DNA from: a virus
UHGV virus genome: UHGV-0071260
Reading direction: 5' to 3' (one strand)
DNA length: 24,179 bases
Shown here: positions 1,339-18,921 of the stretch, piece after piece
How the letters are laid out: every line of letters starts with the position of its first letter
Numbering within the stretch: position 1 is the first letter of the stretch
Position numbers and translations under genes: made by a program
Notes under the pieces: generated by a model
The model's database searches: none
Told to the model about the DNA's origin: nothing
Seen by the model: only the letters and a program-made list of their open reading frames with translations

Positions 1339-1352
1339 GTGATTGCGATCAC
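1339..1352. promoter_or_regulatory. palindromic motif GTGAT-N4-ATCAC (copy 1 of 3), candidate operator
   Basis: Intergenic cGTGATtgcgATCACATAA; nested in a larger inverted repeat GCGATCAC(1345-1352)/GTGATCGC(1373-1380). Confidence 0.3.
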
Positions 1353-1432
1353 ATAAATATACATTTTGTGTTGTGATCGCGTATCCGTTTTGTAAACTGA
1401 AATTAAGAGGTTTACGGCACGGAGGAAACAAG

Positions 1433-1651
1433 ATGGAACGCGAATTGATGCTTTATTGCGTAGAAGGTGGCGTAGGTCACGATGCCTACGTCGCCGGGAA
1501 AGGCTACCCAGCCGATGAAGTGCTTTCTAATATGCACTTCAGAGAAAATGAAAGCCAGGTGTCTGTGTGGAAACGGTGCATTGATGGTATTGAGGTTGTA
1601 AGTATCGAACGGTATTTAGGCACGTTCGATTACGGTGTTATTGAGGCTTAA
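1433..1651 (+). CDS. hypothetical protein
   Basis: ATG at 1433 preceded by GGAGGAAACA RBS; the track ORF 1343-1651 is probably over-extended 5'. Confidence 0.5.
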   Translation: MERELMLYCVEGGVGHDAYVAGKGYPADEVLSNMHFRENESQVSVWKRCIDGIEVVSIERYLGTFDYGVIEA

Positions 1652-1653
1652 TT

Positions 1654-1746
1654 ATGGACGACACATTGTTTTATATGTGCTGTTGCTGGGGTTTTATTGC
1701 CTTATGTCTGTTTATCAGGTGGTTTATTGAATACCATATGAGGTGA
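1654..1746 (+). CDS. hypothetical hydrophobic Cys-rich mini-protein (30 aa)
   Basis: Read from sequence: MDDTLFYMCCCWGFIALCLFIRWFIEYHMR; fills the gap between flanking genes; below the 60-aa track cut-off. Confidence 0.25.
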   Translation: MDDTLFYMCCCWGFIALCLFIRWFIEYHMR

Positions 1747-1749
1747 GGC

Positions 1750-1944
1750 ATGGAACAGAAAACTGATTATAGAATACCTGACAACCTGAAGTTGGTTGGT
1801 ATTGGTTTTGGCTGTCATTTTGTATCTGACACAAACGGTGCAATTTATTTAGTGCGCATCATTGATGGCGTTCAGCATATAAGAAGGCTAGGACTTTACA
1901 TCAAAGCATTCAGAAGGGGTTATTTAAAAACTCATGAAATTTAA
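1750..1944 (+). CDS. hypothetical small protein
   Basis: 64-aa ORF with AGGTGAGG RBS. Confidence 0.45.
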   Translation: MEQKTDYRIPDNLKLVGIGFGCHFVSDTNGAIYLVRIIDGVQHIRRLGLYIKAFRRGYLKTHEI

Positions 1945-2137
1945 ACATTACATGGAATGGAAAATTCCAGAAGCAGCAACAAAGGCAGCGCCAGGAAATT
2001 ATTCTGGCGTTTATTTTTATATGGATGGCAAATGGTATTTCGGCAGCAGGCCGGATCACTATTATCAGGAAATATGCAAGCCTCACGTGTGGGATATTAA
2101 GGAACGCGTGCAAGGCGGTGTGATTGAGGATGTTTAG
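1934..2137 (+). CDS. hypothetical small protein
   Basis: 67-aa ORF overlapping upstream stop. Confidence 0.4.
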   Translation: MKFKHYMEWKIPEAATKAAPGNYSGVYFYMDGKWYFGSRPDHYYQEICKPHVWDIKERVQGGVIEDV

Positions 2138-2138
2138 A

Positions 2139-2366
2139 ATGATGCGTGCACTTATTGACTTCATCGTTGGCTGGTTATTTTGTTCTTTTTTCGTATTCTC
2201 ATGTATAGCCACTGTTTTTATTGGAATTTTATGCGGCGTGTCTTTTGTTACATGGGAACTACCAGAAATGCCATCACCTGATGATGCGCTTTATATGTTA
2301 AGGATCATTATTGCTTTTAGTGTATTTATTGGGTTCTTTTTCGCTGATTCTACTGATGATTTATGA
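2139..2366 (+). CDS. small membrane protein (two predicted TM helices)
   Basis: Hydrophobic stretches FIVGWLFCSFFVFSCIATVFIGILCGV and IIIAFSVFIGFFF; ATG at 2139 sits 8 nt after GAGGA; track start at 2124 is TTG. Confidence 0.45.
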   Translation: MMRALIDFIVGWLFCSFFVFSCIATVFIGILCGVSFVTWELPEMPSPDDALYMLRIIIAFSVFIGFFFADSTDDL

Positions 2367-2367
2367 A

Positions 2368-2601
2368 ATGGCTTTATTTAACCTGTCAGAGCCGCAATTC
2401 AACGCCGTAAAAACTGCCGCACGTGCGGCGCTTTCTGCCTGCAAAGCAGAGGTAGAAAGAAACGGCTACAGCGATAAAGCTACGCGGCTGATATTAGACA
2501 AGCATTATCGCAAGGTCGCCCCGCTAATCAGTATTGAGCGTTTTGTGTGGTTGGTGGGGTATCTGAATAACCGCTGGGGAACAGATCAGGATTATTTCTA
2601 A
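2368..2601 (+). CDS. hypothetical small protein
   Basis: ATG at 2368 immediately after upstream stop; track ORF 2311-2601 is over-extended. Confidence 0.45.
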   Translation: MALFNLSEPQFNAVKTAARAALSACKAEVERNGYSDKATRLILDKHYRKVAPLISIERFVWLVGYLNNRWGTDQDYF

Positions 2602-2610
2602 GGGGGCGTA

Positions 2611-3150
2611 ATGAAAAATGATTACGGCGGCAGCCATACGCCGAAAGAAATAAAAGACTTATGGCAAACGCCAAAACCCGTTTTTAGAGGAATGGATCGA
2701 GAATTCGAGTTCGTCGCGGATGTGGCGGCAAACAAGGCAAACGCATTAATACCGCGATATATAACCGAAGAAATGGACACGCTCCATTATCCGTGGGGAG
2801 CGGTGGCGATGCCTGGTGAGTATGTCTGGATGAATCCGCCATATTCTAATCCGGGGCCATTCGTTGATAAAGCGGCGCTTGAACACAGCCGAAATCATAT
2901 CGGATGCGTAATGTTATTGCCCGCTGACATTTCTGTTAGCTGGTTTATGAACGGCGTGGAGACGGCAAACGAATGCCGATTAATCACGCGCGGGCGGCTG
3001 GCGTTTATCAATGCTGCAACAGGGAAACCAGTAAGCGGGAACAATAAGGGGAGCTTGTTCCTGATCTGGCATCCACGATGCAGACATGAATGTATTTTCA
3101 CGCAGATAACACGTAAAGAGCTATATGCAAGAGGTGCAGAAAATGAATAA
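2611..3150 (+). CDS. DNA N6-adenine methyltransferase, phage Dam family
   Basis: NPPY catalytic motif (WMNPPYSNP) and N-terminal WQTP motif typical of the phage Dam family; AAGGGGG RBS. Confidence 0.8.
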   Translation: MKNDYGGSHTPKEIKDLWQTPKPVFRGMDREFEFVADVAANKANALIPRYITEEMDTLHYPWGAVAMPGEYVWMNPPYSNPGPFVDKAALEHSRNHIGCVMLLPADISVSWFMNGVETANECRLITRGRLAFINAATGKPVSGNNKGSLFLIWHPRCRHECIFTQITRKELYARGAENE

Positions 3151-3463
3151 AGCGGCTGAATTGCTGAGACTTGCGGCTGAAACTATCGAGGCAAGAGGGG
3201 AGCAAAACGGATACGATCGAAAAGAAGAAAAATCAGCGCCAAAAATAGCGGCTATTTTCAACGCTAAGATGAATGCGAATTTAACCCCACTTGATGTATG
3301 GGATCTAATGATTTGCCTCAAGGAAGCGCGTTTAGGGGCTATTCTCGCTAATGGAACTGATCCGCTCGACACTCTTATAGACCTTATTGCTTATAACGCG
3401 CTTAAGGCCGAACAGATATTAGCGTATCGGGAGGAAGAGCTAAATGAAGATGGTGGCAATTGA
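3143..3463 (+). CDS. hypothetical protein
   Basis: ATG at 3143 with GAGGTG RBS, overlapping Dam stop; the track ATG at 3125 lies inside Dam. Confidence 0.5.
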   Translation: MNKAAELLRLAAETIEARGEQNGYDRKEEKSAPKIAAIFNAKMNANLTPLDVWDLMICLKEARLGAILANGTDPLDTLIDLIAYNALKAEQILAYREEELNEDGGN

Positions 3464-3947
3464 CAGGTTATTAGCCTGCGTTTATGTCGCCGTTTTCGTT
3501 ATCATCAATCTTATTGTTAACCACTGTGGCCCGTGGGTAATTCCGATCACCACGGTAGCCGCCGTGTGTGTCAATATGATGATTCGTGATTTTCTGTTAT
3601 ATGACGGCGGCCTTAAATGGTCGGCTACAACATGCGCCGCCGCTGGCGCAATCACGGTGCTGATAAATTACGACGCCGGAATGGTGGCGATCGCCTCATT
3701 CGTCGCGGTTGTTTCCGGTTCGCTTATTTCTGGCGGCGTTTACCGGGTTTTACCTGGTGATTTCGATTCGAAACGCTGGCCTGCAAATATAGCGTCAGCC
3801 ATAGGCGATGCGTTGATTTTCCCTACACTATCGTTTATGGCGTTTATGCCGGAAATATCAGCGATGCAATTCATCTCAAAAATGGCAGCGGTAACGGTGA
3901 TCACTATCATCATGCGCCGCTATTTCACGTTTGAGGGAAGAAAATGA
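3444..3947 (+). CDS. compact polytopic inner-membrane protein (about 5-6 TM helices)
   Basis: Six hydrophobic segments in 167 aa; GGGAGGAAG RBS; stop overlaps the downstream ATG (ATGA). Confidence 0.6.
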   Translation: MKMVAIDRLLACVYVAVFVIINLIVNHCGPWVIPITTVAAVCVNMMIRDFLLYDGGLKWSATTCAAAGAITVLINYDAGMVAIASFVAVVSGSLISGGVYRVLPGDFDSKRWPANIASAIGDALIFPTLSFMAFMPEISAMQFISKMAAVTVITIIMRRYFTFEGRK

Positions 3948-4732
3948 GCAAGGGCAAACATTGGTTAAATAATTGGCTTAGAAGTTGGGTGGTGTGGTCG
4001 CTGTACGACGGCAGCGGGTACGCCGTTAAAGATTGGGCGGAAGCGGGATATAAGTGCTATTGCTTCAATTATGACGGTGCAAATCACGGCGATTATGAAG
4101 GCGTTAAAATCATTCATCCTAATATTGAATACGTTAACGTGTGGATTGACAGCCATTTCCTGGTAATGTTCTCGCCTGAATTGTCTTCTTATCCAGCACC
4201 TGACATTATATTGGGCTTTCCGCCGTGCGACGATCTCGCCGTTTCAGGCGCTCGCTGGTTCGCTGGTAAACGGGAAAAAGATCCTGCCTTCCAGGTAAAG
4301 GCGGCGTATAACGCAAAACTGGTAGAAAAACTGGCGAATATGTATAACGTGCCGTGGATGGTGGAAAATCCGGTGGGCGCACTGTCAACGTTATGGCGCA
4401 AACCTGATTTTATCTTCAACCCGTGCGCTTACGGTGGCTACCTGCCGGAAGACGATAAACACCCTGCTTTCCCTGAATACATAGCGGCCCGCGACGCATA
4501 CACGAAGAAAACTTGTATCTGGTGCGGGAATGGATTTAAGCAGCCGCTATTCCGGCCTGTGCCAATGCCTGATGAATGGGAAGACAGTAAGCAGCACGCT
4601 AAGTTAGGAGGAAAGTCGAAACGCACTAAGATGATCCGCTCACTAACGCCGCGCGGCTTTGCCCGTGCTGTATTCCTGGCTAACGACCGGGCCATCAATC
4701 GCACTACGCTTAACCGCGTTTTACCGGACTGA
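3944..4732 (+). CDS. C5-cytosine DNA methyltransferase-like protein, divergent (PCD in place of PCQ)
   Basis: Motif I-like DGSGY, motif IV-like GFPPCDD, motif VI-like VENPVG in canonical order; short C-terminal region; GAGGGAAG RBS. Confidence 0.55.
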   Translation: MSKGKHWLNNWLRSWVVWSLYDGSGYAVKDWAEAGYKCYCFNYDGANHGDYEGVKIIHPNIEYVNVWIDSHFLVMFSPELSSYPAPDIILGFPPCDDLAVSGARWFAGKREKDPAFQVKAAYNAKLVEKLANMYNVPWMVENPVGALSTLWRKPDFIFNPCAYGGYLPEDDKHPAFPEYIAARDAYTKKTCIWCGNGFKQPLFRPVPMPDEWEDSKQHAKLGGKSKRTKMIRSLTPRGFARAVFLANDRAINRTTLNRVLPD

Positions 4733-4755
4733 AATTTACAAAATGGCGCCATTGC

Positions 4756-4769
4756 GTGATGTGGATCAC
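4756..4769. promoter_or_regulatory. palindromic motif GTGAT-N4-ATCAC (copy 2 of 3), flanked by AATGGCGCCATT-type palindromes
   Basis: cGTGATgtggATCACATAA; perfect 12-bp palindrome AATGGCGCCATT at 4742-4753 and near-copy AATGGCGCTATT at 4772-4783. Confidence 0.3.
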
Positions 4770-4891
4770 ATAATGGCGCTATTCACTTTGTTCTGGTGTA
4801 TCCATTTTGTATGCTTCAAGCAAACGAAATGCTCTTTAAAAATCCGGCAGCGCTGAAATGCGTAGAAATCACCTGAAAAGGAGAGAGCATT

Positions 4892-5068
4892 ATGTCTTTT
4901 GATGATTACCAATGGCATGACGACTATGAACGAGAGAGCGTCATGCGTGCAATGTGCAATGTATGCAGCACAAAGAAAGGAGGCTGTAACGAGTGCAACG
5001 AATGCCTAGATCATTGGCTAATGGCCGGACACGCCGAAAGGCTGAACGAAACAGAGAATCAAAAATAA
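4892..5068 (+). CDS. small Cys-rich putative zinc-ribbon protein (58 aa)
   Basis: Read from sequence: MSFDDYQWHDDYERESVMRAMCNVCSTKKGGCNECNECLDHWLMAGHAERLNETENQK; GGAGAG RBS; below the track cut-off. Confidence 0.4.
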   Translation: MSFDDYQWHDDYERESVMRAMCNVCSTKKGGCNECNECLDHWLMAGHAERLNETENQK

Positions 5069-5082
5069 TCGGGGTGGTTTTT

Positions 5083-5688
5083 ATGCAGAACCCTAAAAAA
5101 CCCATAAGACGCCGTTGCAAATGCTGCGGCGTTTTTTTTGAGCCTAAATATCACAATCAAACGTGGTGCAGCGATGAATGTCTGGAAGAACTGAAGTTTG
5201 ATCAGCTATGCCGCGATCGTGAAAAGGCTATGAAGGCTATGGAACGAAAGAAACACCGTGATAGCCAGCGGGAAGAACGCAACCGGAAGCGGAAGCAGTT
5301 AAATCCGCGCAGCTACTGGATTAAACAGGCGCAAAACGTTTTTAACGCTTATATACGCGAGCGTGACGCGCGATTGCCGTGCATATCATGCGGGACTTAC
5401 TACGGTGAGCAATGCGGGTGGGATGCAGGCCATTACAGGACGGTAGCAGCCGCCGGACACCTTCGCTTCAACGAGGATAATTGTCACAAGCAATGCAGGC
5501 ACTGCAACCAGACACTAGACGGCAACATCGGAGGGTATCGCCCGGCGCTGATTCGAAAAATTGGCCTCGCCAGGGTGGTAGCTCTGGAGAACAACAACGA
5601 AACTCACAAATGGACGATTGCAGAATGTAAGGAGCTAATAAACATCTATCAGGCGAAATTGGACGCCTTAAGGAGAAAGGCAGCATGA
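5083..5688 (+). CDS. ninG: NinG/Rap-family recombination protein
   Basis: Close match to lambda NinG signature (PRSYWIKQAQ, FIRERD, LPCISCGT, WDAGHYRT, LRFNE, HKQC, CNQ, WTIAECK); ATG at 5083 follows a GGGGTGG RBS. Confidence 0.85.
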   Translation: MQNPKKPIRRRCKCCGVFFEPKYHNQTWCSDECLEELKFDQLCRDREKAMKAMERKKHRDSQREERNRKRKQLNPRSYWIKQAQNVFNAYIRERDARLPCISCGTYYGEQCGWDAGHYRTVAAAGHLRFNEDNCHKQCRHCNQTLDGNIGGYRPALIRKIGLARVVALENNNETHKWTIAECKELINIYQAKLDALRRKAA

Positions 5689-6086
5689 ATGAATATTCTT
5701 TTACCCTGCCTTACCCGCCATCGAACAATCGCTATTACCGACATTCGCGCGGTTTTCACTATATAAGCAAAGTGGGGAAGGAATATCGGGAACAAGTAAG
5801 AGACATCATCGAGCTATTAAATTTAAACATTAACCTACCTTGCCGACTGGCAATCGCCATCTATGCCGCGCCGCCGGATAACCGGATCAGAGATCTGGAT
5901 AATATCCCTAAATGCCTTTTTGATAGCCTTACCTATGCCGGATTTTGGAAGGATGACGGGCAAATTGACTCAATAAAAATTGTCCGCTGTCGGAAGGTAA
6001 AAGGCGGACGCTTGTTTATTAAGATCCGCGAACGCGGCGACCTGCTACCCGATATTGACGAATACGCAACGAATATATGGGGGTGA
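5685..6086 (+). CDS. rusA: RusA-family Holliday junction resolvase
   Basis: N-terminal FTLPYPPSNNRYYRH and RDLDN, GFWKDD, KGGRL motifs as in E. coli RusA; ATGA overlap with ninG. Confidence 0.9.
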   Translation: MNEYSFTLPYPPSNNRYYRHSRGFHYISKVGKEYREQVRDIIELLNLNINLPCRLAIAIYAAPPDNRIRDLDNIPKCLFDSLTYAGFWKDDGQIDSIKIVRCRKVKGGRLFIKIRERGDLLPDIDEYATNIWG

Positions 6087-6325
6087 CAATGGAGCTAATA
6101 AACATTGTTGTTAAATGTACTCAATCAAGCGTCGATTTTTTCACTGAAGGTAAAAAATATTCAGGTTTTATAAAGCATGGGTGCTTTGCTTTCATTCTAC
6201 AAGACGATCTTGTATCGGATTTCGACGACGCCTACGCATGGCGATTAGTCCAGTATTTCCCGTCAAAAAATGAGTATTTTTTGCAGGGTCATTTTAAAAC
6301 TCGGTTTAAGGTGGTGGAGAAATGA
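6077..6325 (+). CDS. hypothetical small protein
   Basis: 82-aa ORF overlapping rusA stop. Confidence 0.45.
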   Translation: MGVTMELINIVVKCTQSSVDFFTEGKKYSGFIKHGCFAFILQDDLVSDFDDAYAWRLVQYFPSKNEYFLQGHFKTRFKVVEK

Positions 6326-6504
6326 AAAACGAAGTTAAAGATCTGCAAATAGATATTCAGCGCGATGAGCATGATTTAGCTACAGTCCGACAAATCCAGG
6401 CTTTTCATATGCGCGAATTGCTTGCATTGAAAGAGCTTGAGAGGAAGTTAGTCCAGTCTATTTCTGATCGTAAACGCCTTATTGCTCGTTACGGGGGCAA
6501 ATAA
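6322..6504 (+). CDS. hypothetical small protein
   Basis: 60-aa ORF, start overlaps upstream stop. Confidence 0.4.
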   Translation: MKNEVKDLQIDIQRDEHDLATVRQIQAFHMRELLALKELERKLVQSISDRKRLIARYGGK

Positions 6505-7226
6505 TGAATCTGGAATCAATTCTTAAATTCCACTTCCCAAAATCACCGCGTTTGTCAGATGAAAGCCGGGGCACGTCCCCGGATGCGCTTAATACTACGG
6601 ATGCGCTAACTGCCGCTGGTATGGCGCAATCGCGCGTAGAGCTTGGTTATAGCGCTTTTCTGGGAAAGATGGAACTATCACAAGCCGAAAAACATAAGGC
6701 TGTAGTTTTGCTTACAGAGCGTTTAAGAGCTATGGCAAAAGATTACGAATACGTCATGGAGCTGGACGAGGACAAACGCAATGATCTTATTATTCTTGTT
6801 GCCGTTTTCGCGTTTCGGGATTACTGCCAGAGTGCCGCGACAGAAAAAACTTGTATGGATTGCGGCGGATATAAATTTACGTTTGACGACTACGGAGAAA
6901 AACACCTTTGCAAAAAATGCAAGGGGCATGGAAAAGTTCGCAATCATTGTAAACGATGCAAAGGGCGCGGCGAGATACCGGATAAAGCAGCCAGTGAAGC
7001 AGCGGAAATGCCAGTGTTCAAAACGTGCCAGCATTGCGGCGGGCGCGGGTACTCGCGTTTCCCTGTAGATCTTGTCCGGCGTGCGGTTAATCAGCTTGTA
7101 TTTCCGGTAAGCCGAACAACGTGGTGGAAGAAATACCGTGCTTTCTATGAAGACGCCATTACTGAATTGTTCAAAGAAGAGGCGCGGGCTGATAACGAAA
7201 TTAAACGAGTGACACGGGGTGAATAA
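6504..7226 (+). CDS. Q: late-gene antitermination protein Q-like, with an expanded DnaJ-type zinc-finger region
   Basis: Lies directly after ninG-rusA as in lambdoid phages; N-terminus MNLESILKFHFPKSP recalls Q82-type antiterminators; four CxxCxGxG-like repeats. Confidence 0.6.
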   Translation: MNLESILKFHFPKSPRLSDESRGTSPDALNTTDALTAAGMAQSRVELGYSAFLGKMELSQAEKHKAVVLLTERLRAMAKDYEYVMELDEDKRNDLIILVAVFAFRDYCQSAATEKTCMDCGGYKFTFDDYGEKHLCKKCKGHGKVRNHCKRCKGRGEIPDKAASEAAEMPVFKTCQHCGGRGYSRFPVDLVRRAVNQLVFPVSRTTWWKKYRAFYEDAITELFKEEARADNEIKRVTRGE

Positions 7227-7426
7227 TGAAACAACAAGAGATAAACATGAAAAAAGTGATTATTCTTTTTGAAGATTATAACGGTGAGGCATGGTGCAAG
7301 TATTTAAGCGGTGTTGAAGCACGGTTGGCGCTAACGTTTATTGCCGCACTGGATGAAGGGGATTTTAACGCTATTCCGGTTAAGCCAGTAGAAATCTATC
7401 GTCGCGAGGTGAAGGATGAAGCCTAA
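7226..7426 (+). CDS. hypothetical small protein
   Basis: ATG overlaps Q stop (TAATG); GGGGTG RBS. Confidence 0.4.
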   Translation: MKQQEINMKKVIILFEDYNGEAWCKYLSGVEARLALTFIAALDEGDFNAIPVKPVEIYRREVKDEA

Positions 7427-7685
7427 ATTAAAAGAACATCTATTCGCAAAGCTGGTTAATAATCTGACATTAACGGCGCGTGTGTGCAGTGATACGCAAC
7501 AATTAAGGGCGTGGATAGTAAGGGATTTAAGAAAATACATCGAGCCAGGCGGGCCAGGTGACGAGATGACTATGGACAAGGCCATCAAGCGCCGTTCGGC
7601 TGATTGGTCAGTAAGTAACACAGGATTAACCGGATACATCGAAGGCTATAACGACTGTTTACAGGATCATAGCGATGGCAAATAA
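7416..7685 (+). CDS. hypothetical protein
   Basis: GAGGTGAAGG RBS; overlaps upstream stop. Confidence 0.45.
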   Translation: MKPKLKEHLFAKLVNNLTLTARVCSDTQQLRAWIVRDLRKYIEPGGPGDEMTMDKAIKRRSADWSVSNTGLTGYIEGYNDCLQDHSDGK

Positions 7686-7974
7686 ACACTTACATTTGAA
7701 TTTAAAAGGTGAATACTTCCACGCCATCCGGGCAGGAAAGAAGGTGGAAGAATACCGGCTTTACAATGAATACTGGCGTAAACGCCTGGAGGGGCGGGAG
7801 TACACAAGATTAATCATTAAATGGGGTTATCCATCGGATGATGAGAAAGACCGGATTATCGTATTGCCTTACATGGGGTACGAAATCAAGTTGATTCAAC
7901 ATCCACTATTCGGCCCTGATCCGGTGAAGGTATTCGCAATAAAGTGTGATATTTACTGGCAATACAGATTTTAA
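7675..7974 (+). CDS. ASCH-domain-like protein
   Basis: GxKxxExR signature (AGKKVEEYR) near the N-terminus, 99 aa. Confidence 0.5.
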   Translation: MANKHLHLNLKGEYFHAIRAGKKVEEYRLYNEYWRKRLEGREYTRLIIKWGYPSDDEKDRIIVLPYMGYEIKLIQHPLFGPDPVKVFAIKCDIYWQYRF

Positions 7975-7987
7975 GGTTTGTTGAGCA

Positions 7988-8197
7988 ATGAAAAAAGCTG
8001 GCCTGTCAATTAGCCGCGTATTGTGCGGTGATGAAAACGAGATCCGCATAGAAATTAAATTTAGCACTGGTAAAGAGATAATTCTTTACACGACACCTGA
8101 AAACCTGACGCTGGCGCTTACTGGTAAATCTGAAACGCCGTGCGACGTCCGGTTGCGCAATATTAAAATTAAGGAATTAAGGAAGGGTGAAAAATGA
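7988..8197 (+). CDS. hypothetical small protein
   Basis: 69-aa ORF. Confidence 0.4.
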   Translation: MKKAGLSISRVLCGDENEIRIEIKFSTGKEIILYTTPENLTLALTGKSETPCDVRLRNIKIKELRKGEK

Positions 8198-8394
8198 AAA
8201 GTAGAATGAAACGCCTGGTAAGAGCTTACGACAAGGCTTTAATGGTTTTTAGTGACCTGCGGCACAATAAACGTGAGCGTCGTAAATGGGCGCGTTTATT
8301 TGCTAAAGAATGGCACGAAGATGATGCGACAATCGACTGCCAAAGAGACGCAGACGAATTAGCAGATGATAACGTTTACTATATGATGTGGTGA
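8194..8394 (+). CDS. hypothetical basic small protein, paralog A of a tandem pair
   Basis: GGAAGGGTG RBS; clear similarity to the next gene (MKSxxKRxxRAYDKALxxFxxL...KRxRRxxARL...WH...DAD..A.DN.YY). Confidence 0.5.
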   Translation: MKSRMKRLVRAYDKALMVFSDLRHNKRERRKWARLFAKEWHEDDATIDCQRDADELADDNVYYMMW

Positions 8395-8398
8395 CAAT

Positions 8399-8635
8399 AT
8401 GAAAAGTAACCGTAAGCGCATGATAAGAGCATATGATAAAGCGTTAATAGAATTTAACGAACTATCACGCAGTAAGCGCCGCCGCAGACAATTCGCGCGA
8501 CTTCTTTTTCATGTATGGCACGACGCTGATTTCTTTTTTGATGCCAGACATATAACACAGGAAGATGCGGATAATATAGCTTACGATAACATTTACTACA
8601 TATTGAGAAGGTGGGAATATGCAAATAATCATTGA
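8399..8635 (+). CDS. hypothetical basic small protein, paralog B of a tandem pair
   Basis: Shares the N-terminal and central motif with 8194-8394. Confidence 0.5.
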   Translation: MKSNRKRMIRAYDKALIEFNELSRSKRRRRQFARLLFHVWHDADFFFDARHITQEDADNIAYDNIYYILRRWEYANNH

Positions 8636-8984
8636 TTACCTTTGCCACGCTGCAAATACGCTTTTCGGTTTTTATCAGCATCCATTCCTGAAAGAATGGG
8701 ACGAAATGCTTAATGACATCATTGATAAAGGGTTAATAGTTGAAGTGGACGAGCTAACGATAAAATTCAATTACGAAGGCAAAGAATATGAAATATGGGT
8801 AGGGAATAGATGGTATTCATACGGGCATATTTATTCAATTGGCGGCAAATACATTAAACGGAGCCAGGAGTTTAGACCGCGATTCCGAACAATGCGCCGT
8901 CTGCGTGACCTGCATATGAATATATTTGAAGATCAGAAAGCGTGTGAACTATTCAAGATCTACGGTGATAAATCATGGAACTAA
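8619..8984 (+). CDS. hypothetical protein
   Basis: 121-aa ORF with AAGGTGGG RBS. Confidence 0.5.
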   Translation: MQIIIDYLCHAANTLFGFYQHPFLKEWDEMLNDIIDKGLIVEVDELTIKFNYEGKEYEIWVGNRWYSYGHIYSIGGKYIKRSQEFRPRFRTMRRLRDLHMNIFEDQKACELFKIYGDKSWN

Positions 8985-9205
8985 AAATCTGGCAGGCTAT
9001 CGACGTTGTTGATAACGAATTAACCATGTTTGCCACTGATGGAAAGCGCGTGGTGATCGCTACATGGACGCGCAACCATGATGATATAGCTTTTCGTCGC
9101 AAGGCTGCGGAGTGGCTTTTCTCTGATGAAGGCTACACGATGAATATCTCCCAGCTTGCCAGAATGAAGGATGAAAAGCTGGTAGATAGTTACACGACTG
9201 CATAG
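8975..9205 (+). CDS. hypothetical small protein
   Basis: 76-aa ORF. Confidence 0.4.
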   Translation: MELKIWQAIDVVDNELTMFATDGKRVVIATWTRNHDDIAFRRKAAEWLFSDEGYTMNISQLARMKDEKLVDSYTTA

Positions 9206-9215
9206 TGGGGCAAAT

Positions 9216-9449
9216 ATGCGTATCTATGAACACAAGCGGGATAAAACCCGCTTTTTTGTTCGTGCTGGCGTGGCGTACCAGTATCACGAATGTGGATATA
9301 TTGAGGTGCTTGCTTACAACCTGGATTTCGAACAAGAAAAAGAATGGTTTGACTTTAAGATTTACCGTAAGCGCAAGCCAACGCGCGACGAACGACACGC
9401 TATCCGGGACTTTTTAATCAGCATAGACCACTGGGAGGCAGACGAATGA
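9216..9449 (+). CDS. hypothetical small protein
   Basis: GTGGGG RBS, 77 aa. Confidence 0.45.
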   Translation: MRIYEHKRDKTRFFVRAGVAYQYHECGYIEVLAYNLDFEQEKEWFDFKIYRKRKPTRDERHAIRDFLISIDHWEADE

Positions 9450-9673
9450 AAGTTAAATTCTTGCACGATCACGGATACCAGTCATTGAAACAGGTTGTTG
9501 GTAAGGTCGTTAATGTCGTTCATAGCGATGATATTACTTGCATGATTAATGGTGCTGATCTCATTGCCGCTGGTGCTGATGACCATTACATCAATCCGGC
9601 GTGGTCGTATACGTTCAGCTTGGGCGATTTCGTCGGGGACAAGGGGCGCGGGCTTGAGATTGTAGAGGATTAA
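9446..9673 (+). CDS. hypothetical small protein
   Basis: GGGAGG RBS; ATGA overlap. Confidence 0.45.
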   Translation: MKVKFLHDHGYQSLKQVVGKVVNVVHSDDITCMINGADLIAAGADDHYINPAWSYTFSLGDFVGDKGRGLEIVED

Positions 9674-9677
9674 CGGT

Positions 9678-9893
9678 ATGGACGTTTACGAAGATCTCTA
9701 CCTACAGACCAATAGCCGCACTTTTTATTTTCTGAAAAGCGGCGTCGTATATCGCAGCGACAACGGGGTGATAATGAAAGAGTGTTTATTTAAGCGTAAA
9801 GACCTACTCGAAGATCTGGTTTTTGCCGGGATATTTCGTAAACGTCCGGCTAACCTGGAAGAAGAAATGTTGATCGACGAGGTGTTAAAATGA
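9678..9893 (+). CDS. hypothetical small protein
   Basis: GAGGA RBS. Confidence 0.45.
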   Translation: MDVYEDLYLQTNSRTFYFLKSGVVYRSDNGVIMKECLFKRKDLLEDLVFAGIFRKRPANLEEEMLIDEVLK

Positions 9894-10135
9894 AAGTGAA
9901 TTATTTCAGGGCAAAAGACAAGGCAACAGGAAAGCGGGTGGCTATCCTGGTTAATGAAGCAAATTATATGTTTGTTCTCCAGCCGTGGTGCATAGCTGAC
10001 TATAACGATGATTATCGCCGTCACGCTGCGCGGCGGGCGGTCGGGATGAAAGGCTGGCAGCCTCGCGACATGCTTAATTACTGCGACTGGAATCTGATAG
10101 CAAAATACACGGTCGATTATAAAGGGGTTTTCTGA
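9890..10135 (+). CDS. hypothetical small protein
   Basis: GAGGTG RBS; ATGA overlap. Confidence 0.45.
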   Translation: MKVNYFRAKDKATGKRVAILVNEANYMFVLQPWCIADYNDDYRRHAARRAVGMKGWQPRDMLNYCDWNLIAKYTVDYKGVF

Positions 10136-10347
10136 TGCAAGTTAAATGCTCATACTCAAGCAATGACAGTGTTTTCACGATTGGGAGTATTTATGACGTT
10201 CACATCGTTTATGGCAATGAAGCACACACAATGAGTAATTGCCTTGCCTTGATTGATAATCATGACGAAATATGGGTATTCAGGCCGAGCTATGAAGGCG
10301 GTGAAATATCCGGTGTAGGTTTTGCTGCCAGCTTTGAACGTTATTAA
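10135..10347 (+). CDS. hypothetical small protein, tandem paralog family member 1 of 4
   Basis: AAGGGG RBS; motifs FTIGSIYDV and IDNHDEIWVF shared with the next three genes. Confidence 0.5.
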   Translation: MQVKCSYSSNDSVFTIGSIYDVHIVYGNEAHTMSNCLALIDNHDEIWVFRPSYEGGEISGVGFAASFERY

Positions 10348-10357
10348 AGGGGCAACA

Positions 10358-10615
10358 ATGAAACATTTATATTTTGAGGTATTGCAGACGCGCGACCGCA
10401 ATATTTTTGAAGAAGGGAAGATCTATTGCGGCGTTCAACTCCACGGCGCACCGGGCGGTGATGGTGCAATGGCGATAACTGGCGATGATGATAAAGTTTA
10501 TTTCGCTTATGTTAGCCATATCAATAACGCCGCTGGTTTGTATATTTATCGCATAGTGCATGATTTCCGTGAGATCGCGGAGTTTTGCGCCCGCGAAGGC
10601 AGTAAACCGGAATGA
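10358..10615 (+). CDS. hypothetical small protein, tandem paralog family member 2 of 4
   Basis: AAGGGG RBS before ATG 10358; motifs FEEGKIYCGV and AITGDDDKVYFAY. Confidence 0.5.
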   Translation: MKHLYFEVLQTRDRNIFEEGKIYCGVQLHGAPGGDGAMAITGDDDKVYFAYVSHINNAAGLYIYRIVHDFREIAEFCAREGSKPE

Positions 10616-10625
10616 GTGAGGTGCT

Positions 10626-10865
10626 ATGAATCGGAAACATAGATACCAGTGCACATACTCACGATGCAGCGCGTTTTTTAAGAATGGCAAGATCTACGAG
10701 GTTGACGCGGCATTGGTTGACGCAAAGGATCAGGAATATATTCATGCCATTACTGACGACCAGGGGCAGTTATGGCGATTTTATAAGATGGGTTGTGGCA
10801 CGGCGCTTGTTTATGCGCGTGCTGGTGGTGGTGCTTTTGCTGCGTTTTCGTATGTAGGGGTATGA
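10626..10865 (+). CDS. hypothetical small protein, tandem paralog family member 3 of 4
   Basis: GAGTGAGGTG RBS; motifs FKNGKIYEV, AITDDQGQLWRFY, GAFAAFSY. Confidence 0.5.
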   Translation: MNRKHRYQCTYSRCSAFFKNGKIYEVDAALVDAKDQEYIHAITDDQGQLWRFYKMGCGTALVYARAGGGAFAAFSYVGV

Positions 10866-10867
10866 AA

Positions 10868-11086
10868 ATGATTTTAACGTGTAACGAATCGAAATTGGGC
10901 TGCTTTGAGGAAGGCGTACAGTACACGGCTGAAAAACCGATGGGATTGTCTCCTAAATTTCCGTTTATCGTCGTGACTGACACTTACGGTCACTTATGGT
11001 ATGCAGGGCCGCTAGGCGGTATTGGTCGTTATGTTGTCCGTAGTTCGGATGGGGCGATGAAGGTTACTTTTACGGAAGAAACGTAA
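10868..11086 (+). CDS. hypothetical small protein, tandem paralog family member 4 of 4
   Basis: ATG 10868 (or 10862) after AGGGG; motifs FEEGVQYTA and VVTDTYGHLWYAG. Confidence 0.5.
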   Translation: MILTCNESKLGCFEEGVQYTAEKPMGLSPKFPFIVVTDTYGHLWYAGPLGGIGRYVVRSSDGAMKVTFTEET

Positions 11087-11087
11087 A

Positions 11088-11103
11088 TGTGATCTGTATC
11101 ACA
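11088..11103. promoter_or_regulatory. CRP-consensus-like palindrome TGTGAT-N4-ATCACA (copy 3 of the GTGAT-N4-ATCAC motif)
   Basis: aaaTGTGATctgtATCACAagg matches the CRP consensus core TGTGA-N6-TCACA; intergenic, directly after a stop codon. Confidence 0.35.
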
Positions 11104-11112
11104 AGGTTTACG

Positions 11113-11144
11113 AAATGGCATTGTTTCGGCAGTGCCATTTTGTT
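11113..11144 (+). terminator. putative intrinsic terminator or regulatory hairpin
   Basis: 11-bp stem with one mismatch (AAATGGCATTG / CAGTGCCATTT), 6-nt loop, followed by TGTT. Confidence 0.4.
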
Positions 11145-11184
11145 ATAAAGAAGCTGAAGAGAGAACGATGCGGAGGGTAGAAAA

Positions 11185-11463
11185 ATGAAACGCTGGATTA
11201 ACAAAGAAGTCGAATCTCGCTTAAACGCATTTTGGGAGATGGTGGAGAAAGAAGACCCAGCACACGCTGCAAGCCCTTACCTGAACAACATCGAATATCA
11301 CTACATTGCAGCAAACAACGCGGAGTTCGAAGAAGAAGGTGGAGCCGACAAGTTCGCACAAAGCAACGCATTCAACAACGCAAACGAAATGATGATGGCA
11401 GTCATCGAACAGGCAGAGGAAGACTACGAATGCAAATCACTTGAATTTGCACGCATGGCATAA
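11185..11463 (+). CDS. hypothetical acidic protein
   Basis: GGAGGG RBS; 92 aa. Confidence 0.5.
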   Translation: MKRWINKEVESRLNAFWEMVEKEDPAHAASPYLNNIEYHYIAANNAEFEEEGGADKFAQSNAFNNANEMMMAVIEQAEEDYECKSLEFARMA

Positions 11464-11613: not shown

Positions 11614-11618
11614 AACAC

Positions 11619-11634
11619 GGGGCCGGATGGCCCC
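11619..11634 (+). other. GC-rich stem-loop (GGGGCC-GGAT-GGCCCC) in a short intergenic spacer
   Basis: Perfect 6-bp GC stem with tetraloop; no U-tract after it. Confidence 0.3.
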
Positions 11635-11656
11635 ATCAAATCAGAAGGGTGTAATC

Positions 11657-13098: not shown

Positions 13099-13277
13099 TT
13101 GAAGATGGTATATACGCCGTAACACTAATCGACAAGATGTTTTATCGCGTAGAGGGTGGTGATATTCGCGTTTGCGTTAGCGATGGTGAGTGGGTAGCGC
13201 CAATCATCAAGACGACGCGAGAAACAATTAAGATCTGGCTTGATAATGGCGATTTGGTGAAAGTTAGTGATTTGTAG
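13095..13277 (+). CDS. hypothetical small protein
   Basis: AAGGAG RBS; 60 aa. Confidence 0.45.
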   Translation: MIEDGIYAVTLIDKMFYRVEGGDIRVCVSDGEWVAPIIKTTRETIKIWLDNGDLVKVSDL

Positions 13278-13339
13278 CCATAATCGCGCATAAAAAACAA
13301 ATAGATTAAAATATTTCCTAACAATGCGAAATTGTAATT

Positions 13340-13362
13340 GCCCGGCCCGCGCCGGGTTTTTG
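13340..13362 (+). terminator. intrinsic terminator upstream of the holin gene (candidate tR'-like element)
   Basis: Stem CCCGGC / GCCGGG with loop CCGC followed by TTTTT; in a 104-bp AT-rich intergenic region. Confidence 0.55.
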
Positions 13363-13381
13363 CTTTGTTGGAGGTAAATCT

Positions 13382-13582
13382 ATGTTCGACAAAATACGGG
13401 AGGCGTGCGCGTATGCAGTAGGGGCCGTAACGGCCTTTTTTGGTGCGATAACCATTAATGATGTTGCTGTCTTTGTGGGTATCTTATCAACCGTAGGCAC
13501 ATTTGCCGTTAACTATTACTTCAAATCACAGGAGAACAAGCGAGCGCAAGAGGAACACGACGCGCGAATGGGGAATAAGTAA
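13382..13582 (+). CDS. class II holin (pinholin-like)
   Basis: 66 aa with two hydrophobic helices and a charged C-terminus (YFKSQENKRAQEEHDAR); directly upstream of a SAR endolysin. Confidence 0.7.
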   Translation: MFDKIREACAYAVGAVTAFFGAITINDVAVFVGILSTVGTFAVNYYFKSQENKRAQEEHDARMGNK

Positions 13583-16323: not shown

Positions 16324-16340
16324 TTTAAACGAGGCTGATT

Positions 16341-16415
16341 ATGATTGACCCGCTAATCATCCTTTCTGCCTGCGTCGCTGTATGGCTGGCGATCATGATA
16401 TTCATTGAAAGCTGA
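16341..16415 (+). CDS. mini-ORF 1 of 7, single hydrophobic helix (24 aa)
   Basis: MIDPLIILSACVAVWLAIMIFIES; GAGG RBS; read from sequence. Confidence 0.35.
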   Translation: MIDPLIILSACVAVWLAIMIFIES

Positions 16416-16425
16416 AGGTATCAAC

Positions 16426-16500
16426 ATGAATATTTACGATCTCATCTGGTGGTCATTGGTCGCCGTCATTATCTATTTCTGGTGGAAGAATGTTGTATAG
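16426..16500 (+). CDS. mini-ORF 2 of 7, single hydrophobic helix (24 aa)
   Basis: MNIYDLIWWSLVAVIIYFWWKNVV; AAGG RBS. Confidence 0.35.
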   Translation: MNIYDLIWWSLVAVIIYFWWKNVV

Positions 16501-16508
16501 GTGAAAGC

Positions 16509-16598
16509 ATGAACGCATGCGAAATGCTATTGCTGGTGGCTGTAGTTGTAGTTATTGCCGTGGACGTATACCGGGAGATTAAAAATGAAATGGCTTGA
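16509..16598 (+). CDS. mini-ORF 3 of 7, single hydrophobic helix (29 aa)
   Basis: MNACEMLLLVAVVVVIAVDVYREIKNEMA; AGGTGA RBS. Confidence 0.35.
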   Translation: MNACEMLLLVAVVVVIAVDVYREIKNEMA

Positions 16599-16650
16599 TT
16601 TCTTTTTCCTGATTGTTGCGATTGTTATTACCATGACTGCGCTAACTTAA
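16585..16650 (+). CDS. mini-ORF 4 of 7, single hydrophobic helix (21 aa)
   Basis: MKWLDFFFLIVAIVITMTALT; overlaps mini-ORF 3 by 14 nt. Confidence 0.3.
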   Translation: MKWLDFFFLIVAIVITMTALT

Positions 16651-16661
16651 TAGGTGAGCGA

Positions 16662-16736
16662 ATGAACGCTATTGATATTATGTTGATCGTGTGTACCGTT
16701 GCGTTATTTATTGTCGGAGTGATTATCAATGTCTGA
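16662..16736 (+). CDS. mini-ORF 5 of 7, single hydrophobic helix (24 aa)
   Basis: MNAIDIMLIVCTVALFIVGVIINV; AGGTGAG RBS. Confidence 0.35.
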   Translation: MNAIDIMLIVCTVALFIVGVIINV

Positions 16737-16797
16737 CAGTGATTTCTTAATCATGGCTACATGCACGTTGTTAGTAGTTATCGTTTTCTTCGCATAA
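16729..16797 (+). CDS. mini-ORF 6 of 7, single hydrophobic helix (22 aa)
   Basis: MSDSDFLIMATCTLLVVIVFFA; ATGTCTGA overlap with mini-ORF 5. Confidence 0.3.
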   Translation: MSDSDFLIMATCTLLVVIVFFA

Positions 16798-16807
16798 AGG
16801 TTAAACA

Positions 16808-16891
16808 ATGAAGGAGCTATTCGATTGGTTGGAAGTATTAACATACTGCGCAAGTTTTGTGGCTTGCGTATATATCATCAATAAATATTGA
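16808..16891 (+). CDS. mini-ORF 7 of 7, single hydrophobic helix (27 aa)
   Basis: MKELFDWLEVLTYCASFVACVYIINKY; AAGG RBS; stop overlaps the terS leader. Confidence 0.35.
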   Translation: MKELFDWLEVLTYCASFVACVYIINKY

Positions 16892-18907: not shown

Positions 18908-18921
18908 CGCGTAGCTACGCG
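18908..18921. repeat. perfect 14-bp palindrome CGCGTAGCTACGCG in the terL-portal spacer
   Basis: Sequence is its own reverse complement. Confidence 0.4.

Follow-up and report, generated by a model that had tools for sequence, protein, structure and literature searches.

What role does a 14-bp inverted repeat play when the same sequence, GTGATNNNNATCAC (GTGAT-N4-ATCAC), is found in three separate intergenic regions of one phage genome? This question is raised by UHGV-0071260, a virus genome of 24,179 bp, the whole of which is referred to as the window hereafter. Judged from sequence identity, the window belongs to the mEp021/mEpimmI group of temperate coliphages: its first 12 kb are 87% identical, over 66–84% of the length, to seven Escherichia phages (mEp044, MagusPhagus, mEp010, mEp554, mEp013, mEp021 and mEp515), and the eight closest phage records are all from E. 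coli. The mEpimmI phages are Nus-dependent, non-lambdoid temperate coliphages of human faecal origin (PMC11893012). The answer that we favor, with a probability of roughly 0.55, is that the three palindromes are class-I-type sites for the host cAMP receptor protein (CRP), serving weak internal promoters. Some of the early-gene transcription of the phage would thereby probably be tied to the carbon status of the host.

Three palindromes and the modules that they head

An exact scan of the window found three matches to the repeat, at 1339–1352, 4756–4769 and 11089–11102, which are the positions listed in a preliminary description of this DNA; these are referred to as copies 1, 2 and 3, respectively, hereafter. 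No copy was found in any of 100 dinucleotide-preserving shuffles. The copies are located in the gaps 1335–1432, 4733–4891 and 11087–11184 between plus-strand open reading frames (ORFs), so that their intergenic placement, also claimed in the preliminary description, was confirmed. Every gene of the window is on the plus strand and the genes are closely packed: eight gaps of at least 40 nt exist, and the palindromes occupy three of them. Because the non-coding portion accounts for only about 7.4% of the window, the naive chance that all three copies are intergenic is about 4e-4. That coding sequence carries no copy is true of the window; exact copies within genes do exist in relatives (for example, at 18908 of mEp021), and the conserved flanks are absent there. 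The occurrence of the palindrome is clearly non-random.

The palindrome resembles the sites of CRP, which E. coli encodes. GTGA is the mark of CRP sites, the corresponding bases in FNR sites being TTGA, and the CRP consensus is the 22-bp sequence AAATGTGATCTAGATCACATTT. When the core of this consensus, TGTGA-N6-TCACA, was searched for with one mismatch or fewer, four matches were found in the window against 0.61 expected, a number that no shuffle reached, and the three palindromes are three of these four. At two mismatches the core is not enriched in the window (7 found, 9.8 expected). In all three copies, moreover, a longer module of fixed spacing extends downstream from the palindrome, composed of the following features.

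1335–1356, no strand assigned: copy 1 CRP-type site CAGCGTGATTGCGATCACATAA, 22 bp, with the palindrome at 1339–1352; 14 of 22 consensus positions matched
1371–1398, plus strand: copy 1 promoter-like element, TTGTGA (1371–1376), 16-nt spacer, TAAACT (1393–1398)
4752–4773, no strand assigned: copy 2 CRP-type site TTGCGTGATGTGGATCACATAA, 22 bp, with the palindrome at 4756–4769; 14 of 22 consensus positions matched
4788–4815, plus strand: copy 2 promoter-like element, TTGTTC (4788–4793), 16-nt spacer, TATGCT (4810–4815)
11085–11106, no strand assigned: copy 3 CRP-type site AAATGTGATCTGTATCACAAGG, with the palindrome at 11089–11102; 17 of 22 consensus positions matched
11121–11149, plus strand: copy 3 promoter-like element, TTGTTT (11121–11126), 17-nt spacer, extended −10 TGT-TATAAA with the hexamer at 11144–11149

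From ATCAC to the −35-like hexamer, 18 bases are counted in copies 1, 2 and 3 alike, and the center of the palindrome is 25.5 bp from the first base of that hexamer in all of them. The same distance, 25.5 bp, was measured in lac P1 between the CRP site and TTTACA, using a lac promoter sequence that was confirmed to be 100% identical in E. coli C600; the lac P1 CRP site is centered at −61.5. It matches the 22-bp consensus at 15 of 22 positions. Within the core, one mismatch is found in copy 1, one in copy 2 and none in copy 3, the left half of which is a perfect CRP half-site (AAATGTGATCT, 11/11). The core promoters match the promoter consensus at 7–8 of 12 positions, which is under the threshold of a consensus scan; such weak core promoters fit dependence on an activator. 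The next gene after copy 1 begins with the ATG at 1433 and that after copy 3 with the ATG at 11185. A class II geometry was rejected: the hexamers at +29.5 to +34.5 from the palindrome center are GATCGC, TCTGGT and TTCGGC, none of which is −10-like.

The sequence surrounding the palindromes is also partly shared. Copies 1 and 2 have the common right flank ATCACATAA, and copy 3 reads AAATGTGATCTGTATCACA, in which the CRP core and the flank are as first described. The flank of copy 2 contains AATGGCGCCATT at 4742–4753 and a near-copy of it, AATGGCGCTATT, at 4772–4783, 18 nt further on, again as noted before. The preliminary description erred regarding copy 1, which it regarded as nested in a larger 8-bp inverted repeat: the right arm together with part of the spacer (GCGATCACA, 1345–1353) pairs instead with a downstream sequence, TGTGATCGC (1372–1380). 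A further shared sequence, CCRTTTTGTW, occurs just before or within the −10 region of all three modules. It has four copies in the window (1385, 4737 on the minus strand, 4802 and 11135) against 0.37 expected, and 13 copies in mEp021, many of them sense-oriented, intergenic and ahead of genes. In mEp021, GTATACAAAATGG immediately precedes the −35 hexamer of PR. It is found in copy 3 of relatives as well, and the layout of copy 3 there parallels that of mEp021 PR (GTATACAAAATGG, −35 hexamer, 17 nt, −10 hexamer). CCRTTTTGTW and GTATACAAAATGG could be an UP-like or alpha C-terminal domain (alpha-CTD) element, or the site of another factor.

Each palindrome contains a GATC (Dam) site, at 1347–1350, 4764–4767 and 11091–11094. 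Most relatives retain it, and a gene for a Dam-like methyltransferase (2611–3150) is present in the phage itself. Methylation at these sites could modulate the binding of a protein.

Conservation of the modules among relatives

An IMG/VR scan with the Q-like protein provided 46 related loci with 10-kb flanks, which together with mEp021 and mEp044 make 48 relatives. The copy 2 module was found in all of the 48 loci that cover the region (the window counted), and none of the 48 has lost GTGA-N6-TCAC. At least 10 different tetranucleotides occupy the center of copy 2, and two bases each are found at position 4 (C or T) and position 14 (A or G); with G at position 14, copy 2 reads a perfect TGTGA-N6-TCACA, as in TGTGATGAATGTCACA. 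The substitutions among the relatives thus follow the CRP core, not the 14-mer as such. The promoter-like element is also kept. TTGT is present in all relatives amid variable bases (TTGTT is invariant in 33 aligned sequences, and TTGTC is found in a few others), the −10-like hexamer, TATGCT in the window, is TATACT in every relative examined, and no insertion or deletion separates the palindrome from TTGTT in the orthologue alignments. The absence of insertions and deletions between the palindrome and the −35-like element holds for the orthologue alignments of all three copies, although in copy 2 the bases in between vary.

The copy 3 module was found in 34 loci, with GTGA kept in 34 of 34 and GTGATCT with a single exception. 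The right half is (C/T)CGCA, not TCACA, in about 12 of these loci, so that pairing with the left arm is lost; this right arm still resembles a weaker CRP half-site. The genes 5′ of copy 3 vary among the relatives while the module is kept. This arm-selective conservation, including that of a copy 3 half-site that has no pairing partner, argues for a protein-binding site and not for a hairpin. The copy 1 module was found in 45 related loci, and its state is described below together with the points that count against our interpretation. Outside the mEpimmI group, a distant blastn search of INPHARED found neither the copy 2 nor the copy 3 module, and a protein-seeded scan of GTDB genomes gave no more distant relatives.

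The whole mEp021 genome contains five one-mismatch copies of the palindrome, two of them coding, against about 1.5–2 by a rough estimate. Those at 37692, 44002 and 26607 are intergenic and lie just 5′ of the tape-measure, tail-L and terS genes. One such copy follows CCATTTTGTATAAAAT, so that a −10-like hexamer precedes it, an arrangement like that of a repressor site. These one-mismatch copies may be chance matches.

Gene context, proposed mechanism and competing explanations

The features in and around the modules that bear on their function are as follows.

1372–1380, no strand assigned: inverted copy of the copy 1 right arm, TGTGATCGC, overlapping the −35-like element
4742–4783, plus strand: extended dyad of copy 2, AATGGCGCCATTGCGTGAT-GTGG-ATCACATAATGGCGCTATT, 42 nt, predicted as terminator TERM_4/t4 in mEp021
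4830–4863, plus strand: nutR2, with boxA TGCTCTTTAAAAA (4830–4842) and a boxB hairpin GCGC-UGAAAU-GCGU (4850–4863)
5110–5139, plus strand: strong intrinsic terminator CGCCG-N12-CGGCG followed by T8, within the 5′ end of ninG
6504–7226, plus strand: Q gene (PF03589), with copies 1 and 2 upstream of it
11110–11143, plus strand: hairpin ACGAAATGGCATTG-TTTCGG-CAGTGCCATTTTGT followed by a T tract, 14–15 bp, −19.5 kcal/mol, z −6.3

The gene 5′ of copy 1 codes for a 206-aa protein without known function. A cytosine-methyltransferase-like gene precedes copy 2, after which come ninF (start at 4892, directly 3′ of copy 2, encoding a Cys-rich 58-aa NinF-like protein), ninG, rusA and the gene for the 240-aa Q antiterminator. 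Copy 3 is flanked by small genes of unknown function and lies 5′ of the lysis cassette. In mEp021, the N-like protein Gp17 acts on nutL, nutR1 and nutR2, and nutR2 is located 3′ of the cytosine-methyltransferase gene (PMC11893012), which corresponds to the copy 2 gap. The other two nut sites of mEp021 are also 3′ of promoter-like elements, PL (TTGATC-16-TAAACT) and PR (TTGACT-17-TATATT). The predicted start of the copy 2 promoter is near 4822 and nutR2 begins about 8 nt later; the terminator at 5110–5139 follows about 250 nt past nutR2, and the equivalent site is annotated as T6 in mEp044. As read from the sequence, the order of the copy 2 region is that of a lambda-like promoter, nut site and terminator in a delayed-early region.

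From these arrangements we infer that CRP binds, where transcription would start, that the effect is activation and not repression, and that there is a link to Q; the mechanism would be as follows. A CRP-cAMP dimer would bind TGTGA-N6-TCACA, centered 25.5 bp 5′ of the −35 hexamer, as in lac P1, and at about −60 from the predicted start, and would recruit RNA polymerase via the alpha C-terminal domain to weak sigma-70-type promoters in the rightward early/delayed-early region, the TTGTnn −35 hexamers being presumably too poor to work well alone. The transcript from the copy 2 promoter would carry nutR2 in its first ~40 nt and would then meet the terminator at 5110–5139, so that only Gp17-modified polymerase would read on into ninG, rusA and Q. 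Q expression would thus in part follow carbon status. The targets of copies 1 and 3 would be short series of small genes without known function, and copy 2 would also encode the tip of t4 on transcripts arriving from upstream. In the case of copy 1, a terminator-like hairpin with a T run was found at 1987–2011, inside a 67-aa ORF (1934–2137) and at the predicted t3 position of mEp021; it would stop transcripts of the copy 1 promoter after two small genes.

For copy 2, a more specific proposal can be made tentatively, and we think it less likely to be right than wrong: CRP site, weak promoter, nutR2 and terminator would form an internal operon that is gated by host CRP, depends on N and leads to ninG, rusA and Q, with the third nut site serving it and with the same 14 bp coding doubly, for a CRP site in the DNA and for the t4 apex in RNA from upstream. 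An internal promoter at copy 2 would explain why the group has a third nut site. If activation of these promoters by CRP is true, a widespread group of gut coliphages reads the host cAMP signal directly at internal promoters, and one CRP promoter feeds the late-gene regulator Q through its own nut site. This would give a reason for the three-nut-site layout of mEp021 and a route from the carbon source to lysis timing or lysogeny. The practical gain would be modest, consisting of better annotation of regions now annotated for terminators only and of three compact natural CRP-responsive modules.

Several observations weigh against CRP sites at weak promoters. The −35 and −10 hexamers were picked by eye after the sequences had been seen, and the consensus scan does not call them. 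Based on the predicted starts, the palindromes are centered at about −59.5 to −60.5 and so lie 1–2 bp closer than the canonical −61.5, the spacers of the phage being 16–17 nt and that of lac 18 nt. Conservation is higher for the T at position 9 than for that at position 4, which is atypical for CRP. The copy 1 core, intact in 30 of the 45 loci, is degenerate in the other 15, and some relatives have TAAGCC or TGAACT in place of its −10-like hexamer; the clade in which this hexamer has decayed from TAAACT to TAAGCC contains the majority of the degenerate palindromes. Since core and −10 decay together in one clade, copy 1 looks dispensable, or under loss, in that part of the group. Copy 3 is absent from mEp021, and is dispensable in that sense. 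Neither the palindrome nor any promoter at it is mentioned in the papers found on the mEpimmI group and its deposited annotations, the annotations giving only predicted terminators for these intergenic regions. RNA structure is a further point: the three regions fold far better than shuffled controls (z −3.2, −5.0 and −5.8), so that a part of the conservation may have another cause. Copy 2 is the tip of the t4 dyad (−23.1 kcal/mol, z −5.4), and the −35-like element of copy 3 sits within the terminator-like hairpin at 11110–11143, for which mEp044, mEp010 and mEp554 carry a terminator annotation.

The main rival explanation, which we regard as unlikely, is that some dimeric regulator other than CRP, encoded by the phage or the host, uses the palindrome as its operator and switches the three internal promoters on or off by infection stage or in the prophage. 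Phage activators that bind dyads near −55 are known, and P2 Ogr, Mu Mor/C and T1 Pir are the types of phage regulator with which it can be compared. Arms that are kept, a spacer that is free and a promoter-like element at a fixed distance are expected of such an operator as well; T9 and mostly A14 are better kept than T4, which suggests a GTGAT core, and more than 40 small proteins of unknown function, including the 58-aa NinF-like protein, are encoded nearby. Among 40 window proteins (about 1–13.3 kb), however, Pfam detected no DNA-binding domain, and PHROGs, run on ten of them, and a PDB sequence search with the 206-aa protein were negative too; a CRP-like or helix-turn-helix protein of the phage was rejected on these negative results, which are not proof of absence. 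Moreover, the change at position 14 leaves the CRP core perfect (TGTGATGAATGTCACA), copy 3 fits the extended CRP consensus in its A-rich left flank and its CT, which a protein that reads GTGAT only would not need, and the same pattern is found in azuC, a host promoter regulated by CRP (see below). The immunity repressor and Cro of the phage can be set aside: the complete mEp021 genome, scanned with one mismatch or fewer, has no copy in the immunity/PL/PR region (10.8–12.4 kb), so that the palindrome is not the Rep021/Cro operator. The preliminary description had suggested a phage-specific operator, additionally or instead read by host CRP. The former part lost ground with the empty immunity region and the Pfam result, while the CRP part gained it from the core match, the lac-type distance, the core-sparing substitutions and the azuC pattern, all of them features of the sequence. 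The promoter-like module at a fixed distance, the connection of copy 2 with nutR2 and with the tip of t4, and what phage this is had escaped the preliminary description. Also rejected were a Q-binding element (two copies are 5′ of the Q gene, and a separate candidate late promoter with t5 exists at about 13257–13365) and, by eye, the DnaA box and sites of IHF, LexA, GalR/LacI-type regulators and HipB, for which the matching bases are unconserved or the spacing is wrong.

The next explanation in rank, on which we place little weight as a substitute for CRP, is that the palindromes act as RNA or single-stranded DNA hairpins, i.e., as terminator or attenuator-like parts that punctuate the N-antiterminated operon, with copy 2 as t4. 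All three regions fold well beyond shuffles, and copy 2 forms the apex of the TERM_4 dyad, after which CTTTT follows in most relatives and CTATTC, an interrupted T tract, in the window. One copy 1 lineage has changed both pairing partners together (ATCGC with GCGATCGC), and several arm substitutions keep G-U pairs. Copies 1 and 3, on the other hand, are stems of 5–6 bp lacking a T tract and are thus not terminators, and there is no reason why three independent hairpins should have one stem sequence but varied loops. The core of the copy 3 left arm is kept in 34 of 34 loci even though about 12 right arms cannot pair with it, and variants such as GTAAT...ATCAC break a pair. TGTGATCGC, the alternative pairing partner of the copy 1 right arm, has a different sequence in three of the related loci (L015, L016 and L043). 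For copy 2, covariation does not stand out from shuffles (478 of 500 reach the observed score); as nearly all pairs are invariant, covariation is uninformative between the two explanations and refutes neither. No known RNA family (Rfam) and no tRNA was found. A hairpin role does not exclude CRP: the terminator role of the copy 2 dyad is probably real and is compatible with a CRP site on the DNA, so that both may be true for copy 2. The least likely explanation, and a very improbable one, is that the modules are conserved junctions at mosaic boundaries, at which gene modules are swapped by homologous recombination and the palindrome is a passenger. It accommodates the different genes 5′ of a kept copy 3 module, the lack of copy 3 in mEp021 and the decay of copy 1 in one clade, but it leaves unexplained the selective conservation of the arms, the identical spacing at three unrelated junctions and the match to the consensus of a host regulator.

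Three further regions of the window may be recorded here. At 13257–13365, a candidate Q-dependent late promoter region is followed by a strong terminator (GCCCGGCCCGCGCCGGGT and a T run), the counterpart of the experimentally shown t5 of mEp021, with the holin gene at 13382. At 11617–11636, there is a G+C-rich hairpin with a T tract on the minus strand only, i.e., terminator-like for leftward transcription, although minus-strand genes are not evident in the window. Finally, the 564 nt at 16324–16887, 5′ of the small terminase gene, contain no convincing ORF and may be a packaging site or a regulatory region.

Comparison with known systems

A close model for the CRP sites proposed here is lac P1, along with other class I CRP-dependent promoters of E. 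coli. The 22-bp site, the TGTGA-N6-TCACA core, the 25.5 bp to the −35 hexamer, the imperfect core promoter and the E. coli host are alike. The phage modules differ in the spacers (16–17 nt against 18 nt in lac), in the weaker −35 hexamer (TTGTnn), in their position inside an antiterminated operon, and in the overlap of copies 2 and 3 with terminator-type hairpins. The late promoters of P2, 186 and P4, which are served by Ogr, Delta and B at TGT-N12-ACA near −55, likewise have a repeated dyad about 55–60 bp 5′ of weak promoters. In contrast to these, the dyad of the present phage is TGT-N10-ACA with a full CRP core and belongs to the early region, two copies being 5′ of Q; its late genes appear to be controlled by Q (PF03589), and no Ogr-like protein was detected.

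A genome scan for GTGAT-N5-TCACATAATGG gave mostly chance matches. About 19 of the 80 matches listed fall between genes of Enterobacterales, Vibrionales or Pasteurellales, in many cases close to another CRP-like site, and the azuC promoter is among them. The azuC promoter of E. coli has GTGATTTGCATCACATAA, in which the GTGAT-N4-ATCACATAA pattern is the same as in copies 1 and 2. It was reported that azuC is repressed by CRP on genetic evidence, and CRP sites were predicted there (PMC8915982). The arrangement differs from that of the phage: in our own reading, about 14.5 bp separate the azuC site from the −35 hexamer, with another site over the core promoter, which fits repression, whereas the phage has a single site at an activating distance. 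In the matched azuC promoter (L171, 150–215), the second CRP-like site overlaps the −10 region, and orthologous tandem sites were found in Citrobacter and Dryocola.

Host CRP acting on a phage has a precedent. In a temperate T1-like coliphage, host cAMP-CRP controls the pir, dam and recE promoters (Laganenka et al. 2019, PMC6737242). There, host CRP operates at phage promoters and couples phage development to carbon status, as it would in the present phage. The two phages are unrelated. CRP represses in the T1-like phage and acts on a lysis-lysogeny regulator, whereas the mEpimmI geometry predicts activation and the target would be an internal unit with a nut site. Control of phage promoters by CRP is already known; for the mEpimmI group there is no earlier description of it, and its predicted pairing with a nut site would be modestly new. 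As for the nut site, pR-nutR-tR1 and pL-nutL of lambda show the same order as the copy 2 region, namely, promoter, boxA/boxB and a terminator that only N-modified polymerase passes. No promoter has been reported for nutR2; in comparison with lambda, the proposed copy 2 promoter would constitute a third, internal unit of this kind, placed under a host activator and not under a phage repressor.

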